Virus record (IMG/VR): IMGVR_UViG_2548876867_000016
Span: 1 to 4,668 of that record
Origin: a virus
Taxonomy: Duplodnaviria; Heunggongvirae; Uroviricota; Caudoviricetes
Reading direction: 5' to 3' (one strand)
Length of the DNA: 4,668 nucleotides
The translations under genes were made by a program, and so were the position numbers. The notes beneath the pieces are model-generated. The model was given only the letters and a program-made list of their open reading frames with translations. It was not told the DNA's origin and made no database searches. Positions 1-4,668 of this stretch are shown here, piece after piece (positions within the stretch are counted from its first letter, which is position 1; each line of letters opens with the position of its first letter).

Positions 1-267
1 ATGCGCAGAAAAGAATCAAACGTTAGCAGTTTGCCGGAACTCACCAATTTTGAGGTAAGCTATTCCCTAGTTACCAATGAAGTTTACTTGTCTGCATCCT
101 TCACTGATAACATGGCCTGTATACCAAACTGGCCCTTACAAGAATTTCCGGATCAACTAATATGCATTTCTCGAGCAAAAGCTATTGCCCTAATCGAAGA
201 GCTCCAGAAGACCATCGACTATATGGACGCAGGAATCGATCGACAATCAGGTAGCCTGCTCCAGTAG
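1..267 (+). CDS. Hypothetical small protein (88 aa), AT-rich; function unknown
   Basis: Open frame from ATG at 1-3 to TAG at 265-267. No recognisable motif. Lies in the AT-rich left block. The window starts exactly at this ATG, so it may be a true start or a window-edge coincidence. A second frame stays open from 255 to 440, so a frameshifted longer gene is possible. Confidence 0.4.
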   Translation: MRRKESNVSSLPELTNFEVSYSLVTNEVYLSASFTDNMACIPNWPLQEFPDQLICISRAKAIALIEELQKTIDYMDAGIDRQSGSLLQ

Positions 268-400
268 CTGGCGAGTTTTATACTCGTTCCCTGCAACAAT
301 GGGCTTTTGGTAAGGCACTCACAAATAAGGAATTCGTTAAGGCTTTTGTTCTGGAGACTCTGAAAGATACAAGGAATCAGTTGATGGCTGGTTTGATCAT

Positions 401-441
401 ACTAATTAATATATTGTCAGACTCACAATATATTAATTAGT
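401..441. promoter_or_regulatory. Near-perfect palindrome (17-bp arms, 7-bp spacer): candidate operator or protein-binding site upstream of the 281-aa ORF
   Basis: Seen directly: ACTAATTAATATATTGT (401-417) and ACAATATATTAATTAGT (425-441) are exact reverse complements around CAGACTC. It sits in the intergenic region between the 88-aa ORF and the 569 start. Function is inferred only. Confidence 0.3.
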
Positions 442-568
442 GGTAGAACATAAAACCGAGTTCTTGACTTTCAATAGCTATTATATGCGATCAACAACCT
501 TAACCACCTCCTTATATTTTATGAGATACTCAAACAATTTAAATTTATGAGCAAAGGAAAATAATAAA

Positions 569-1414
569 GTGAATAAAAATCCCTGGGATATTCCAGCATG
601 GCACGCTCTGGGCCGAGAAGCATCTTTAGTTACACAGCTCATTGGTTCTGGGGCAACAGCCATAGGTAAAGCCAATTATGCAGACAAAATAGGTGAATAT
701 TACACAGCATTTTTTGGGCTTTCTGTAGGTTTTGAGAGACTTGCTAAACTAATACTTGTTGCACACTATGCCATTGAACACAAAGGGAAAATGCCTGATG
801 AGAATATTGTAAGAAAATTTGGACATAAGCTCATTGAATTAACCAACGAGGTTGATAGTATTTCTAAAAAAATGCAACTATCTCTGAGATATTCACGTCC
901 TACACATAAAATTACCTACAAAATACTTGAATGTTTAGATTCCTTTGCTGATGCCCGACGGGGACGTTACGCAAATTTCTCCTCATTAAGCAACCCCAAT
1001 TTAACCAATAATGAACCTATTAATAAATGGTGGGGAGAAGTAGCCGAGAGTATCCTTGAAAAACATTATTATTATACAGTTGAACAAAGACGTGTTGAAG
1101 AAAATGCTAGGTTTATCAATGCCACTCTTTCACCGTATACAACGGTCATGTATATGAATGAAAGTACCAACATTATGCAAGACCTTATATCAGCATCCAT
1201 CCGTACTGGACAAAATACCATTGTTCAAAAGTGGGGAAGATTCTATTCTCTTAGCATCGCTCGTTGGCTTGCCACAGTATTAGCAGAACTGTCTGATATA
1301 GCTTCTCATAAATATGGAATAATTAGTTTTTATGGCCTTAGTGAACATTGTTGCAGTTATATAGTTGAAGATAGTTTTTTAAAAAACAGAAAAATATGGC
1401 CACTTCGCCAATAG
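569..1414 (+). CDS. Hypothetical protein (281 aa), AT-rich orphan gene; candidate accessory or defence cargo, function not recognisable from sequence
   Basis: Uninterrupted 846-nt frame. GTG start at 569 preceded by AAGGA (554-558); stop TAG at 1412-1414. Composition is clearly more AT-rich than the phage genes to the right. It converges on the invertase remnant, whose stop is 5 bp away. The predicted protein is hydrophilic with no obvious transmembrane stretch. Confidence 0.7.
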   Translation: MNKNPWDIPAWHALGREASLVTQLIGSGATAIGKANYADKIGEYYTAFFGLSVGFERLAKLILVAHYAIEHKGKMPDENIVRKFGHKLIELTNEVDSISKKMQLSLRYSRPTHKITYKILECLDSFADARRGRYANFSSLSNPNLTNNEPINKWWGEVAESILEKHYYYTVEQRRVEENARFINATLSPYTTVMYMNESTNIMQDLISASIRTGQNTIVQKWGRFYSLSIARWLATVLAELSDIASHKYGIISFYGLSEHCCSYIVEDSFLKNRKIWPLRQ

Positions 1415-1435
1415 TTAACTAGAAAATCTGCATAA

Positions 1436-1451
1436 GGGGGAGAAATCCCCC
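1436..1451. terminator. Short GC stem-loop (GGGGGA-GAAA-TCCCCC) at the junction of the convergent 281-aa ORF and the invertase remnant; possible terminator
   Basis: Seen directly: 6-bp stem with a 4-nt loop. It is 22 bp downstream of the + ORF stop. There is no clean T-run on the + strand; on the - strand it is followed by TTATGCAGATTTTCT. It lies inside the non-homologous tail of the invertase remnant frame. Weak call. Confidence 0.25.
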
Positions 1452-1624
1452 ACCTGTAATAACATAACTACTAAAATTAACACCTTGTTCGCACAACTCC
1501 TCCACCAGCACGACAAGATGCCGCACACTGCGCCCCAGCCGATCCAGCTTCCAGACAACCAGAGTGTCACCTGCCGATAATGTCCTGAGCAGTTTTTTCA
1601 GTCCCGGCCTTTCGGACTTTGTAC

Positions 1625-1712
1625 CGCTTATCTTGTCTTCAAAAATCAGCTCGCATCCTGCACAGTTCAGCGCATTACGTTGTAGATCTGTGTTCTGGTC
1701 ATTTGTTGACAC
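1625..1712. promoter_or_regulatory. Probable Fis-dependent recombinational enhancer within the 5' coding region of the invertase gene (approximate bounds)
   Basis: In Hin/Gin/Cin systems the enhancer lies inside the 5' end of the invertase gene. The minus-strand sequence here, GTGTCAACAAATGACCAGAACACAGATCTACAACGTAATGCGCTG, closely resembles the Hin enhancer-region sequence as I remember it (GTGTCAACAATTGACCAAAATATCGATTTACAGCGTAATGCGCTT). Exact Fis-site boundaries were not determined. Confidence 0.35.
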
Positions 1713-1787
1713 ACATACATAGCCAATAAGCATAGTGGATCCCTCTGACAAAAGCAGGAATGATGCCATTTGCTCGTTATTTCTGCA

Positions 1788-1813
1788 TTTTCATAAACGT
1801 TGGTTTGGGAGAA
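1788..1813. repeat. 26-bp invertase crossover site (hix/gix/pix-like), left boundary of the invertible segment
   Basis: Minus-strand reading is TTCTCCCAAACCAACGTTTATGAAAA; compare hixL TTCTTGAAAACCAAGGTTTTTGATAA as remembered. It is about 55 bp upstream of the invertase start. The inner half-site GGTTTGGGAGAA (1802-1813) is the exact reverse complement of the inner half-site of the right-hand site. Confidence 0.8.
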
Positions 1814-2161
1814 GCGGCGAAAAGGGATGTGGGTACAGGAGAAAATCAGATACCGGATATGTCAGCCTGGAAAAGAAATCCGAGTTCTAATCGCTGGAGA
1901 AAATTGCCTGATGGAACCATCATTCAAATGGGAATATCAGCATCAGGGCCATTAGGCTCACCTGTAAATATCACCCTGCCGATATCTTTCAGCAATACCA
2001 ATTATTGTGTTGTTGCATCGTACGATAATGCACGGTCAGGTGTGTCAACAATGGTTAGTTTTGCAGCATTACCTGTTTCACCATCGCAATTTTCCCTGAT
2101 GTCATCTGTGACTGAGCAAGGAATAAATCCTTTTGCTTACTGGATTGCTTTTGGAGATTGA
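1802..2161 (+). CDS. Alternative tail-fibre C-terminal cassette, promoterless and startless in this orientation; would be fused to the constant N-terminus after inversion
   Basis: The frame runs through the crossover site encoding GLGE, the same residues and frame as the expressed fibre gene at the other site. It continues AAKRDVGTGENQ...AYWIAFGD to TGA at 2159-2161, with no similarity to the currently expressed C-terminus. The ORF-track start at 1760 lies upstream of the site and is probably not used. Confidence 0.7.
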   Translation, partial: GLGEAAKRDVGTGENQIPDMSAWKRNPSSNRWRKLPDGTIIQMGISASGPLGSPVNITLPISFSNTNYCVVASYDNARSGVSTMVSFAALPVSPSQFSLMSSVTEQGINPFAYWIAFGD

Positions 2162-2164
2162 TAA

Positions 2165-2584
2165 ATGGACAGATACTTCTATTCACAAAAAGAAAATGGT
2201 TTTTTTACCGATTTAAATAAAGCACCTTCAGATGCTGTTGAGATAACCACGGATGAATGGCTGTCACTACTGGATGGTCAGGATAATGGCATGAAAATAG
2301 TCAGCAATCAGGAGGGATATCCGGTTTTGACAGAGCAACCACCTTTATCAAAAGAAAACCTTATTGCATTGGCAGAGTTGAAAAAAGGAAAACTTATTAA
2401 TGAAGCCAACGAGCACATGAACAGCAGGCAATGGCCTGGTAAAGCGGCTATTGGTCGTCTGAAAGGTGAGGAACTGGCGCAATATAATTTGTGGCTGGAT
2501 TATCTGGACGCACTGGAGCTGGTCGATACTTCCAGTGCGCCAGATATTGAATGGCCTACGCCTCCGGCAGTTCAGGCCAGATGA
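2165..2584 (+). CDS. Alternative tail-fibre assembly protein (Tfa/U-like, 139 aa), partner of the silent cassette
   Basis: ATG at 2165, 3 nt after the upstream stop. C-terminus ...LWLDYLDALELVDTSSAPDIEWPTPP parallels the C-terminus of the other assembly protein (...LDYIDAVTVTDTSTAPDIIWPELP). Position and size match the second assembly gene of Mu/P1/e14-type invertible segments. Confidence 0.8.
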   Translation: MDRYFYSQKENGFFTDLNKAPSDAVEITTDEWLSLLDGQDNGMKIVSNQEGYPVLTEQPPLSKENLIALAELKKGKLINEANEHMNSRQWPGKAAIGRLKGEELAQYNLWLDYLDALELVDTSSAPDIEWPTPPAVQAR

Positions 2585-3158
2585 TATCCGGCGCGGTGCT
2601 GGTATCTGTTACCGTCACCGCGTCAATGTAATCCAGCACGGCGTTAAGTCGGGTTGTTTCTGCCTGCGTCAACTTCCGTCCGGCCTGCAATTTCAGTTGA
2701 ATCAGACTAATGGAAGCCATTGCAGTATCAATCAGTGACTGACGCTGTGCTTCTGCCGCGTCTACTGCGGCGCTATGCTGTGCCTCGGTATCCGTCACCC
2801 ATTTCTCACCATCCCATTTATCGTATGGCGTTAACGGGGCGATAGTGGTTGTATTATCAGGGTAATCACCCGGAACTGTGATTTCTTTTGATTCTCCTGT
2901 TTCGGTGCTAAAGACGATTTCACCGCGATGGTCTGGCACATATTCCCATGAGTTAAAATCAGCAGATCGGCAGATTGCATAACCAGCTTTGTATGCGCCT
3001 GGGGCATCTAAACAGGAATATGCCGGAATGCCGACACCAATAGCAAGATATTCAGTTGAAGCTGAAATATATTCCCGACTCATGACATCAAAGTTATAAA
3101 CAGTAATTTCTCCTGCCATAGTGGCAATTAATTCACTGTTTAATTCTGCGTTATTCAT
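2556..3158 (-). CDS. Tail-fibre assembly protein (Tfa/U-like, 200 aa), expressed partner in the current orientation
   Basis: Its ATG (3158-3156) overlaps the fibre stop by one base (TAATG), suggesting translational coupling. Conserved assembly-protein C-terminal motif ...DTSTAPDIIWPELPEA. Its 3' end overlaps the convergent alternative assembly gene by 29 bp. Confidence 0.85.
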   Translation of the reverse strand: MNNAELNSELIATMAGEITVYNFDVMSREYISASTEYLAIGVGIPAYSCLDAPGAYKAGYAICRSADFNSWEYVPDHRGEIVFSTETGESKEITVPGDYPDNTTTIAPLTPYDKWDGEKWVTDTEAQHSAAVDAAEAQRQSLIDTAMASISLIQLKLQAGRKLTQAETTRLNAVLDYIDAVTVTDTSTAPDIIWPELPEA

Positions 3159-3988
3159 TATGCAGCCCTCACAATATAGTTAAAAGCGACATTTCGTGGG
3201 CGTGTTTCATTCGCACCTGCAGGTTTAGTCGTTGCCGCAACAACACCACCCTCTGTAATAGCCGGGTTGGGAATTGGGTAATTATCGAAGTCAATGGCCG
3301 GAGACAGGGGCGTGATTTGTTTTAAAATCGTGGTGCCTGTAAAACTTTCCAGAGTCTGGTCGTTAGTTCGTGAAGTCCAGATTCCCCAATAGTGGTTATG
3401 ACTGACAATCGCACCGTCCTGAAGCGTTAATAATCCCCTTCCGTTATCCACTCCACGTCCGTCATCCCAGCCACGAATAAACTCACCGCGTAAATCAGGC
3501 AATTTATTTGTCGGGTAAGCCTTTGCCAGTTCCGGGTATTCTTCAGCAGAAAAAGCCGCACCATTGCATTTCAGCCAGCCTGTCGGCGGAGTGGCGGAAG
3601 GCCACGGAACAGGCACACCAACAGGTAATGCAGAGCCTTCTCCCAAACCAAGGTTTTCGAGAGCTGTTTTCACCGTGCCATCCGATTTGATATCACCAAA
3701 CGGATTCTTGCGGCTCAGGTATTCAACAGCAAACCCCGATCCCAGCAATTCAACAAAACCGGGCAGATCACCATTATCAAGCACATCCCGTTGCGTTTTA
3801 TCACTTACAAACTGGGCCAGAGCTGCAGCAATAAAGCTGGCCTGCCGAATAACCTTATTGACTTGCGCACTGGATGCTTTCCCTGCTGTAAATCCGGATA
3901 TAAGCGCAGGCAACGCTTCCCATTCCTCCTGCGACATAACATTGGCATTTCGATCAGTTGCAAACGCTTTAAAGTCATTTTTCGCCAT
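3158..3988 (-). CDS. Tail-fibre protein: constant N-terminal part (outside the segment) fused at the crossover site to a variable C-terminal receptor-binding part with a tail-collar-like motif
   Basis: Start ATG at 3988-3986 overlaps the upstream gene stop by one base (TGATG), with GGGGAG about 10 nt upstream; an alternative in-frame ATG is at 4006. The crossover site at 3638-3663 lies in-frame and encodes ...ENLGLGEGS. The downstream part contains [24 protein letters not shown]...[11 protein letters not shown], which matches the phage tail-collar motif as I recall it. Stop TAA at 3160-3158. Confidence 0.85.
3638..3663. repeat. 26-bp invertase crossover site (hix/gix/pix-like), right boundary of the invertible segment, inside the tail-fibre coding sequence
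   Basis: Plus-strand TTCTCCCAAACCAAGGTTTTCGAGAG. The first 14 bp are identical to the minus-strand reading of the 1788-1813 site. Central AA dinucleotide at 3650-3651, as in hixL. Confidence 0.8.
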
Positions 3989-4668
3989 CAGAGTAATACT
4001 CCCCATGCCCCTACATCAAAACCACTGATGAATTCGTTATCCATGTCAAAACCAAAAAATTTAGAGCCTTCCGATGGAGTTTCCACCGAAGGTGTTTCAA
4101 TGCCCCCCGCCCATACCCCGGCGGCTTTTACTGTTAGATACCCCTGTTTAATTGCCGCAATTAACTCACGCGATACATCTGAAATATCAGTATCAGGAAA
4201 GACCCAGACCGATATCGTCATGTCCTGGTTATCGACTATCTGCATTCGCAGCCCGGATCCTGCTGTTGCCGCGTCAAGAATTGCCGGAAGCGAATCATTC
4301 CGTCCGTCCCAGTTATTAATCGCAATCTTCGCTTTAAGAATGACACGATAAGTTTCATCGCTGAGATACATGTATCCTGAATCAGGATCGTATGGTCCCT
4401 GCCATACCCCCTGATCATATCCAAGCCCGTCGGTATCCCAGCTGAAATAGACACCTGAGATAGGCTGGCTGACAACACGGCTACGTCCGATCCACAATCC
4501 AAGAATGTCAAGTTGCACACCAACCGCAGAGTCAATATCAAATGCAGTAATCAGCCCTCTGGTGGCAGCCGCAACATCAATAAGTGGCCGGGTCATCAGA
4601 TCAACATGCGCAAGAAATTTAGGTTTGGTGGCGTGGTAGTTCGTGATTAGTTCGGTGTATTTGCTCAT
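3988..4668 (-). CDS. Phage baseplate or tail structural protein (226 aa) immediately upstream of the tail-fibre gene (Mu gp48 / e14 YmfQ-like position)
   Basis: Uninterrupted 226-codon frame from ATG at 4668-4666 (the window edge) to TGA at 3990-3988, overlapping the fibre start by one base. Phage-like composition. The family assignment rests on gene order only; I do not recognise a specific motif. Confidence 0.7.

Follow-up and report, generated by a model that had tools for sequence, protein, structure and literature searches.

What does a gene do that arrived in a block of low guanine-plus-cytosine (GC) content and took away the end of an invertase gene in an Escherichia coli prophage? The question is raised by a stretch of 4,668 nucleotides (nt), positions 1 to 4,668 of the IMG/VR virus record IMGVR_UViG_2548876867_000016 and hereafter the window, which holds an open reading frame (ORF) of 281 amino acids (aa) at positions 569-1414 on the plus strand. 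Based on the genomic contexts in which relatives of this candidate defence effector gene are found, we propose that it encodes a self-contained anti-phage effector acting in superinfection exclusion or abortive infection, a proposal for which we judge the case to be evenly balanced. The block that carries it is foreign, lies within the prophage, and took the place of other cargo and of part of the invertase gene pin.

A foreign block in a variable prophage slot

The window is the attR-proximal end of a myovirus-type E. coli prophage of about 44 kb, a relative of Salmonella phage SEN34 (Brunovirus). In strain 82.0312 this prophage is flanked by yfhL and yfhH, and its att core is an 18-base-pair (bp) direct repeat, AATTGTGATATGTGTGAA, within the 5' end of the ferredoxin gene yfhL. 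The attR copy of AATTGTGATATGTGTGAA is found 208 bp beyond the left end of the window, which places all of the window within the prophage.

The edges of the block were set by blastn against a sister prophage that occupies this chromosomal site in the O55:H7 strain CB9615. Homology to CB9615 covers window positions 1-282 (96% identity) and 1467-2300 (97%) with none between, and these breakpoints together with base composition delimit a low-GC block at 283-1466 that is assigned to no strand. Its GC content is 36.1% versus 46.7% in the remaining window; across the whole prophage, 1184-bp windows have a mean of 49.5 +/- 4.1% and only 0.2% of them are as low, placing the block about 3 standard deviations under the prophage mean. 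An earlier sequence-only reading had described an AT-rich block at 1-1475. The shift in composition is borne out and the right edge (1466) is close to where it was put, but the left edge lies at 283 and not at 1.

In the same interval CB9615 encodes a different hypothetical protein of 215 aa and an intact PinE of 182 aa. From this comparison the block replaced 1045 bp, including the last 282 nt (94 codons) of pin, in agreement with the earlier suggestion that its arrival removed the 3' part of the invertase gene; the abrupt stop in invertase homology, expected near 1470, falls at 1467. In SEN34, the position between SEN34_31 and the tail-fibre chaperone is taken by an O-acetyltransferase. As the contents of SEN34, CB9615 and the window all differ, the interval is a cargo slot that has been filled in at least three ways. 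Bounded by the last backbone gene on one side and the tail-fibre inversion module on the other, it is accordingly a variable accessory slot, as had been supposed. Three marks of a prophage moron or accessory region are present: the block is inside the prophage boundaries, varies among sister phages and has an atypical composition.

The block is present in 43-44 of 5426 complete E. coli genomes, at yfhH/yfhL in all of those examined. About 80 E. coli genomes match window positions 1-282 only, like CB9615, and so have another arrangement downstream. The alternative cargo of CB9615 (WP_001288816.1, 215 aa; locus coordinates 7326-7973) has a hydrophobic N-terminus and a coiled-coil-like remainder, and gave no PADLOC match.

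The 281-aa gene and its family

The 281-aa ORF begins with a GTG codon preceded at 9-10 nt by AAGGA, and is a real gene given its hundreds of conserved homologues. Its product has a mass of 32.3 kDa, an isoelectric point (pI) of 9.05 and no transmembrane segment. In a word-indexed search 486 relatives came up; the 120 best are 56-99% identical and about 280 aa long, and every name among those 120 is "hypothetical" only. In a hidden Markov model search of 1.84 billion cluster representatives, 953 clusters (formed at 50% identity) matched at E<=1e-3 and 686 at E<=1e-10, nearly all end to end and with lengths of 265-290 aa. The gene had been called an orphan. It does match no described family in the libraries searched, but the label does not hold, as the family is large and its 953 clusters span several phyla. 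The distribution is patchy, with members in Gamma- and Alphaproteobacteria, Binatia, Nitrospinota, Gemmatimonadota, Desulfovibrionales and Mycobacterium, a pattern that points to horizontal transfer. The version in E. coli is 99% conserved, and its commonest variant is found on at least 1000 contigs.

The protein has no match in Pfam (E<=0.1), NCBIfam or PHROGs, a 13-bit NCBIfam HdrC score against a cutoff of 350 being noise. No family of PADLOC v2.0.0 matches it at E<=1. When 42 diverse members of the family were compared with PADLOC, only two single chance-level matches were returned, and against Pfam at E<=10 no family recurred, HEPN included. The PADLOC library contains the "embedded" PDC candidates, as a gene neighbouring one family member matched PDC-S35, and thus the family is outside that set. 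Identity with DARNA/PD-T7-3, HEC-08 or the PDC candidates was considered and ruled out. The accession numbers of the family are mentioned neither in the full-text literature searched nor in the supplements of recent discovery papers. The family itself appears to be undescribed, while its kind is familiar: single-gene defence that is borne on mobile genetic elements (MGEs), embedded in restriction-modification (RM) operons and built on a HEPN-like fold.

Linkage to type I restriction-modification operons

Contexts were sampled by exact-protein look-ups with precomputed Pfam labels and by a scan of one genome per species, a census biased toward relatives that are about 45% identical or more. In eight of the 33 species-representative loci the gene forms part of a type I RM operon. 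Seven of the eight have the order hsdM-hsdS-(optional extra gene)-family gene-hsdR with all genes co-directional, while in the eighth the gene comes directly after hsdR; a metagenomic contig holds another embedded copy. Packing in the seven embedded loci is tight, with gaps of 9-17 nt or a 9-nt overlap, and in two of them the ATGA start overlaps the hsdS stop. An Enterobacter ludwigii copy lies directly after hsdR and beside an integrase, on an island that also has Vsr, HNH and DUF4917 genes. The embedded loci represent one RM lineage (HsdR 60-88% identical, embedded family gene 43-68%), whereas the two loci with the gene after hsdR are from unrelated lineages (HsdR 22-32% identical), for at least three unrelated lineages overall. 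Accordingly, the link with type I RM arose more than once.

The product of the optional extra gene in the embedded slot is a CAP12/Pycsar-type TIR protein (PDC-S35) in some cases and a 204-aa protein with weak similarity to PD-T4-4_B in others, and the gap between hsdS and hsdR seems to act as a multi-gene cargo slot. Second embedded genes are often present in the alphaproteobacterial operons (locus coordinates 5291-6025; 10847-11554; 9368-9979).

Tight, even translational, coupling between hsdS and hsdR in the seven loci and the metagenomic one, with the gene order kept across an RM lineage whose HsdR proteins are 60-88% identical, would also suit an accessory or regulatory subunit of type I RM. 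Such a subunit would tune or license HsdR or act as a non-toxic guard, and the MGE copies would work on the resident system of the host. However, 25 of the 33 loci have no adjacent RM system, nor does the window copy, which is solo in its prophage, and the gene is also found after hsdR and with unrelated RM lineages. Moreover, the PDC-S35 TIR gene occurs in the same slot, which has the look of a docking site open to independent defence genes in general (Payne et al. 2024). We therefore regard a subunit role as unlikely.

The thematic link to type I RM, along with carriage on phages and conjugative plasmids, could alternatively reflect an anti-restriction or counter-defence protein that helps MGEs enter hosts with type I RM. 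An inhibitor located inside the operon of its own target, co-directional and coupled to hsdS, makes little sense however. Ocr and ArdA are acidic DNA mimics, and the 281-aa protein, with its pI of 9.05, is basic and unlike either. The prophage copy is also at the late, attR end and not in an early-injected region. Together these points render an anti-restriction role very improbable.

Other mobile contexts

Homologues recur in prophage accessory slots, a possibility raised by the sequence-only reading. The Serratia copies reside in P2-like prophages, flanked by gpA and the portal gene; this slot is the P2 defence hotspot, and one of the copies is beside a PvuII RM system. A copy in a lambdoid prophage is about 3 kb from a bona fide KwaB gene (Kiwa; E 4.5e-142), and a Chromohalobacter copy is about 3.5 kb from those for Thoeris ThsA and ThsB. 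One Klebsiella copy is at a prophage end, and another copy adjoins an IS110 element. Matches were also found in 134 plasmid records, 116 of them conjugative, with Klebsiella, E. coli and Salmonella as sources. The IncX1/IncX3 conjugative plasmid NZ_OX460314.1 encodes a distant, full-length member of 273 aa (hhalign probability 99.9%, E 2e-31; locus coordinates 3603-4424) in an accessory region near a resolvase, DinQ-like type I toxins, hns, hha and topB. In none of the contexts examined is a partner ORF conserved beside the family gene. The family is thus large and patchily distributed, and its association with type I RM operons and with hotspots in MGEs recurs.

Because slots in MGEs hold all kinds of genes, the 281-aa gene could instead be a moron for lysogenic conversion, regulation or nucleotide metabolism rather than for defence. 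The O-acetyltransferase in the SEN34 slot is a conversion gene, several homologues are located among housekeeping genes, and no known defence model matches the family. On the other hand, embedding in RM operons in about a quarter of the sampled species would be far above what chance placement predicts. The P2 gpA/portal slot, the KwaB and Thoeris neighbours and the HEPN-type proteins that head the fold matches (see below) likewise speak for defence, leaving a non-defence moron improbable.

The plasmid records raise the further possibility of a selfish toxin that stabilizes its carrier or excludes rival plasmids or islands. Most of those plasmids are conjugative, DinQ-like toxins and a resolvase adjoin the IncX1/IncX3 copy, and a HEPN-like fold is common among toxins. 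However, an antitoxin is not evident: the 281-aa gene has no adjacent MNT-type gene, the region 283-568 has no meaningful direct repeats, i.e. no upstream tandem-repeat RNA antitoxin, and the flanks of the embedded copies span just 9-17 nt. In lysogens the gene is also intact and 99% conserved with no sign of a neutralizer. We consider a selfish toxin distinctly unlikely. All of these alternatives fit the combined context less well than does a defence effector.

Predicted fold and conserved residues

With a shallow alignment AlphaFold modelled the 281-aa protein at a pLDDT (predicted local distance difference test score) of 80.7; with 42 diverse members in the alignment, the pLDDT was 95.2 and the pTM (predicted template modelling score) 0.93. 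The model is all-helical, with an N-terminal HEPN-like bundle (about residues 9-166) and a C-terminal helical domain, and it includes an up-and-down bundle of four helices in the HEPN topology. HEPN-type proteins head the fold matches, with the HEPN-like domains of ANT(6) and LinB among the upper ranks, followed by YutE, AF0298, TT1696, sacsin, Csm6, HepT toxins, AbiV (18% identity over 124 residues), AbiA and HepS. In the predicted structure, then, the fold of the N-terminal domain resembles HEPN. Searches of PDB sequences with the single sequence and with two profiles returned chance matches only.

Across 110 full-length cluster representatives E56, K60, H86, Y134 and W154 are invariant. R133, R57, E17 and R232 are 97-99% conserved in the same set, and N136 and E198 93%. 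Conservation of E56, K60, R133, Y134 and W154 suggests an active site that is different from, or an extension of, the one typical of HEPN proteins. RNase chemistry is possible for the 281-aa protein, though we think it doubtful on present indications.

Relation to known systems

The closest functional analogues would be HepS and PrrC, yet the 281-aa protein does not group with either of them or with any PADLOC family. Like prrC, many family members are positioned between hsdS and hsdR, co-directional and tightly coupled, and both PrrC/RloC and the family may use a HEPN-type nuclease fold. Payne et al. (2024, bioRxiv 10.1101/2024.01.29.577857) describe PrrC as occurring almost only inside type I RM, whereas that position accounts for 7 of the 33 family loci and the metagenomic one, the window copy and most others being away from RM. 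Unlike PrrC/RloC, the family has no N-terminal ABC/NTPase domain, the protein being only 281 aa and entirely helical, and it does not match the PADLOC models, which are expected to include PrrC.

HepS is a single-protein HEPN abortive-infection system of the Salmonella prophage Gifsy-1 (PMC13043305). It has no detectable sequence relationship to the family and has a canonical HEPN active site (His105 is mutated in the deposited structure), in contrast to the [K/R]xxGH of the family. AbiV, a Lactococcus HEPN RNase, needs the RNA antitoxin abiV2, while the family gene has no such partner or upstream repeat. The family is also distinct from AbiV, AbiD/F, DARNA/PD-T7-3 and HEC-08 in that none of the members compared matches HEPN_AbiV or another Pfam or PADLOC HEPN profile. 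With the HEC and PDC "guilt-by-embedding" sets (Payne et al. 2024) the family shares a type of evidence, an uncharacterized gene nested in type I RM, and one family locus adjoins a PDC-S35 gene of that set. The family is nevertheless outside those candidates, having no PADLOC v2.0.0 match and with six of its accessions absent from the supplements.

The locus also resembles the end of the E. coli K-12 prophage e14, in that both have a defence-type gene beside a Pin-family invertase gene at a prophage end. There the neighbour of pin is mcrA, as the sequence-only reading pointed out. McrA is an unrelated protein in a different prophage, however, and in the present case the variability of the slot is seen directly among sister prophages.

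A proposed mechanism

In the favoured scenario the block is a one-gene cassette, coding for a soluble protein, that was acquired horizontally and sits in the variable slot close to attR in a SEN34-like myovirus prophage. The N-terminal HEPN-like bundle would hold a conserved polar pocket formed by E17, E56, R57, K60, H86, R133, Y134, N136 and W154, whose ligand or substrate may be RNA or a nucleotide. The helical domain at the C-terminus might keep the protein inactive until a phage cue is sensed, and copies between hsdS and hsdR may respond, like PrrC, to loss of the restriction complex. The lysogen would then exclude other phages via the effector. We infer the defence role from context, and the RNase chemistry and the trigger are likewise inferred.

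A wider version of this scenario is that the family represents a new, widespread class of single-protein immune effector, HEPN-like with the non-canonical motifs [K/R]xxGH, ERxxK and RYxN. Its ancestral role would be to guard type I RM against phage anti-restriction, in a manner like PrrC but without the NTPase domain, before phages and IncX plasmids captured it for stand-alone use in exclusion. We put this forward only tentatively and think it more likely wrong than right.

Several observations weigh against a HEPN-type defence effector. The sequence-only reading had looked to structure prediction and a fold search to place the protein; HEPN-like matches were indeed found, but Foldseek against the PDB gave only non-significant global helical matches (best E 0.72). 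No HEPN model of Pfam or PADLOC matches any of the 42 diverse members. The canonical Rx4-6H motif is absent, and its best counterpart, [K/R]-x-[Y/F]-G-H86, has three residues between the basic residue and the histidine, one too few; its first position is K in 53 and R in 50 of the 110 representatives. According to the authors of the AbiV work, the R, the H and the R-H spacing are not strictly conserved in the AbiV family either. Of the 25 loci that are not in RM operons, most are surrounded by ordinary genes, with defence genes few and scattered. Finally, as no RM system is adjacent to the window copy, a guard mechanism like that of PrrC is not simply transferable to it.

Sequence features around the 281-aa gene

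Left of the block is an 88-aa acidic ORF (1-267, plus strand). The sequence-only reading had counted it as part of the foreign block, but it is a conserved end-of-genome backbone gene that matches phrog_17793 (E 5.8e-46) and is present in both CB9615 and SEN34. Its homologue in Salmonella phage SEN34, SEN34_31, sits between the moron slot and int.

An AT-only palindrome is located at 401-441 (no strand) and was found by a repeat search. It has a perfect stem, ACTAATTAATATATTGT / ACAATATATTAATTAGT, around a 7-nt centre and, taken as 20-nt arms, is 95% complementary; the predicted RNA fold has an energy of -17 kcal/mol (z -5.2). The palindrome described earlier as a strong candidate operator thus exists, but a role as operator of the system is not supported, as it does not co-occur with the gene elsewhere, being absent upstream of homologues in other genomes. 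Its half-site has no second occurrence anywhere in the prophage. The palindrome and the 88-aa ORF were both rejected as parts of the system given that neither accompanies the 281-aa gene in other contexts.

A consensus scan predicts a sigma-70-like promoter, TCAACA-16-TATATT, at 491-518 on the plus strand (9/12 matches) that could drive the 281-aa gene. The sequence that the window shares with the enterobacterial homologue cassettes starts about 55 nt before the GTG and includes the ribosome-binding region AAAGGAAAAT. Downstream, 22 nt past the stop codon, is a GC-rich hairpin, GGGGGA-GAAA-TCCCCC (1436-1451, plus strand), with a fold energy of -14.6 kcal/mol (z -2.6) and no T-run, a possible transcript-end structure. 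As signals of its own the 281-aa gene thus has consensus-level promoter matches and a hairpin lacking a T-run only. The Enterobacter, Serratia and Klebsiella copies share, in the corresponding place, a conserved hairpin of another sequence, GCTCACAAC-AG-TGTGAGC, about 60 nt after the stop codon (locus coordinates about 8890-8915 or about 8885-8910), which may be the 3' edge of a mobile cassette or a common terminator.

The truncated invertase and tail-fibre inversion

The gene interrupted by the block is a pin-type serine invertase gene on the minus strand at 1419-1733 (1419-1769 as an ORF), identified by Pfam and by alignment with PinE. Its homologous codons 1-89 are at 1467-1733, so that 89 of the 182 Pin codons are kept, followed by 15 unrelated codons to the stop. 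The Pfam Resolvase N-terminal domain is the sole match in the truncated protein (1.3e-26), and RefSeq annotates pin as a pseudogene without the C-terminus. In the YxRVS motif (window 1710-1733, minus strand), the truncated Pin has an R8C change, MLIGYVCVS versus MLIGYVRVS in intact PinE, an Arg-to-Cys substitution that fits decay after inactivation.

The invertible tail-fibre segment, which is context for the cargo and not part of it, is bounded by crossover-site repeats at 1795-1814 on the left and, within a tail-fibre gene, at 3637-3656 on the right (both no strand). The pair forms a 20-nt inverted repeat that is 95% complementary. Homology to strain 22AR0747 breaks exactly at both repeats. 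That strain has the same 281-aa block and the same truncated pin (locus coordinates 4796-6960), and its tail-fibre segment (window 1795-3656) is in the opposite orientation with partly different sequence. Based on that orientation the segment was inverted or exchanged despite loss of the invertase in cis, presumably by Pin-family invertases of other prophages acting in trans.

Prophage layout

From the left, the window contains the 88-aa ORF, the 281-aa ORF, the truncated invertase gene, the module for tail-fibre inversion, which includes alternative fibre tips and chaperones, and a DUF2612 gene; the baseplate genes are past the window end. The start codon of the 88-aa ORF, at window position 1, is also the exact end of several IMG/VR viral contigs, so the left edge of the window is probably a prophage-prediction boundary and not a biological one. 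Three GenBank "complete phage genome" records, vB_EcoM-606R2, -611R5 and -683R1 (ON470579.1 among them), were considered as proof of packaging and rejected as prophage predictions; they contain the host genes tadA, yfhB and yfhH (locus coordinates 1-2254), and thus their ends are not phage ends.

A remnant of the yfhL start, MALLITKKCINCDMCE, is duplicated at attR (retrieved-locus coordinates 14747-14793; about 7340-7400 in a second locus), and from this duplication the phage end provides a replacement 5' end for yfhL at attL. The same prophage has other low-GC islands in its early region (locus coordinates 10661-11578, 12308-13069 and 15244-15873), which include the gene for a TIR-domain protein and two hypothetical genes and may be more accessory or defence cargo. 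In the strain concerned its primase gene is split by an IS21 copy (locus coordinates 21032-24364).

Implications

For the phage, the cargo swap at this locus destroyed the tail-fibre invertase that had been encoded in cis. If the proposed defence role is true, a large cross-phylum family of about 950 clusters at 50% identity would join the bacterial immune repertoire, with members in E. coli, Klebsiella, Serratia and Vibrio and on conjugative IncX-type plasmids, all of which current annotation tools miss. The non-canonical motif in a HEPN-like fold would, in that case, widen the definition of a HEPN active site. The existence of both embedded and stand-alone copies would likewise make the family a useful model for establishing whether genes embedded in RM operons guard the complex or merely shelter there.

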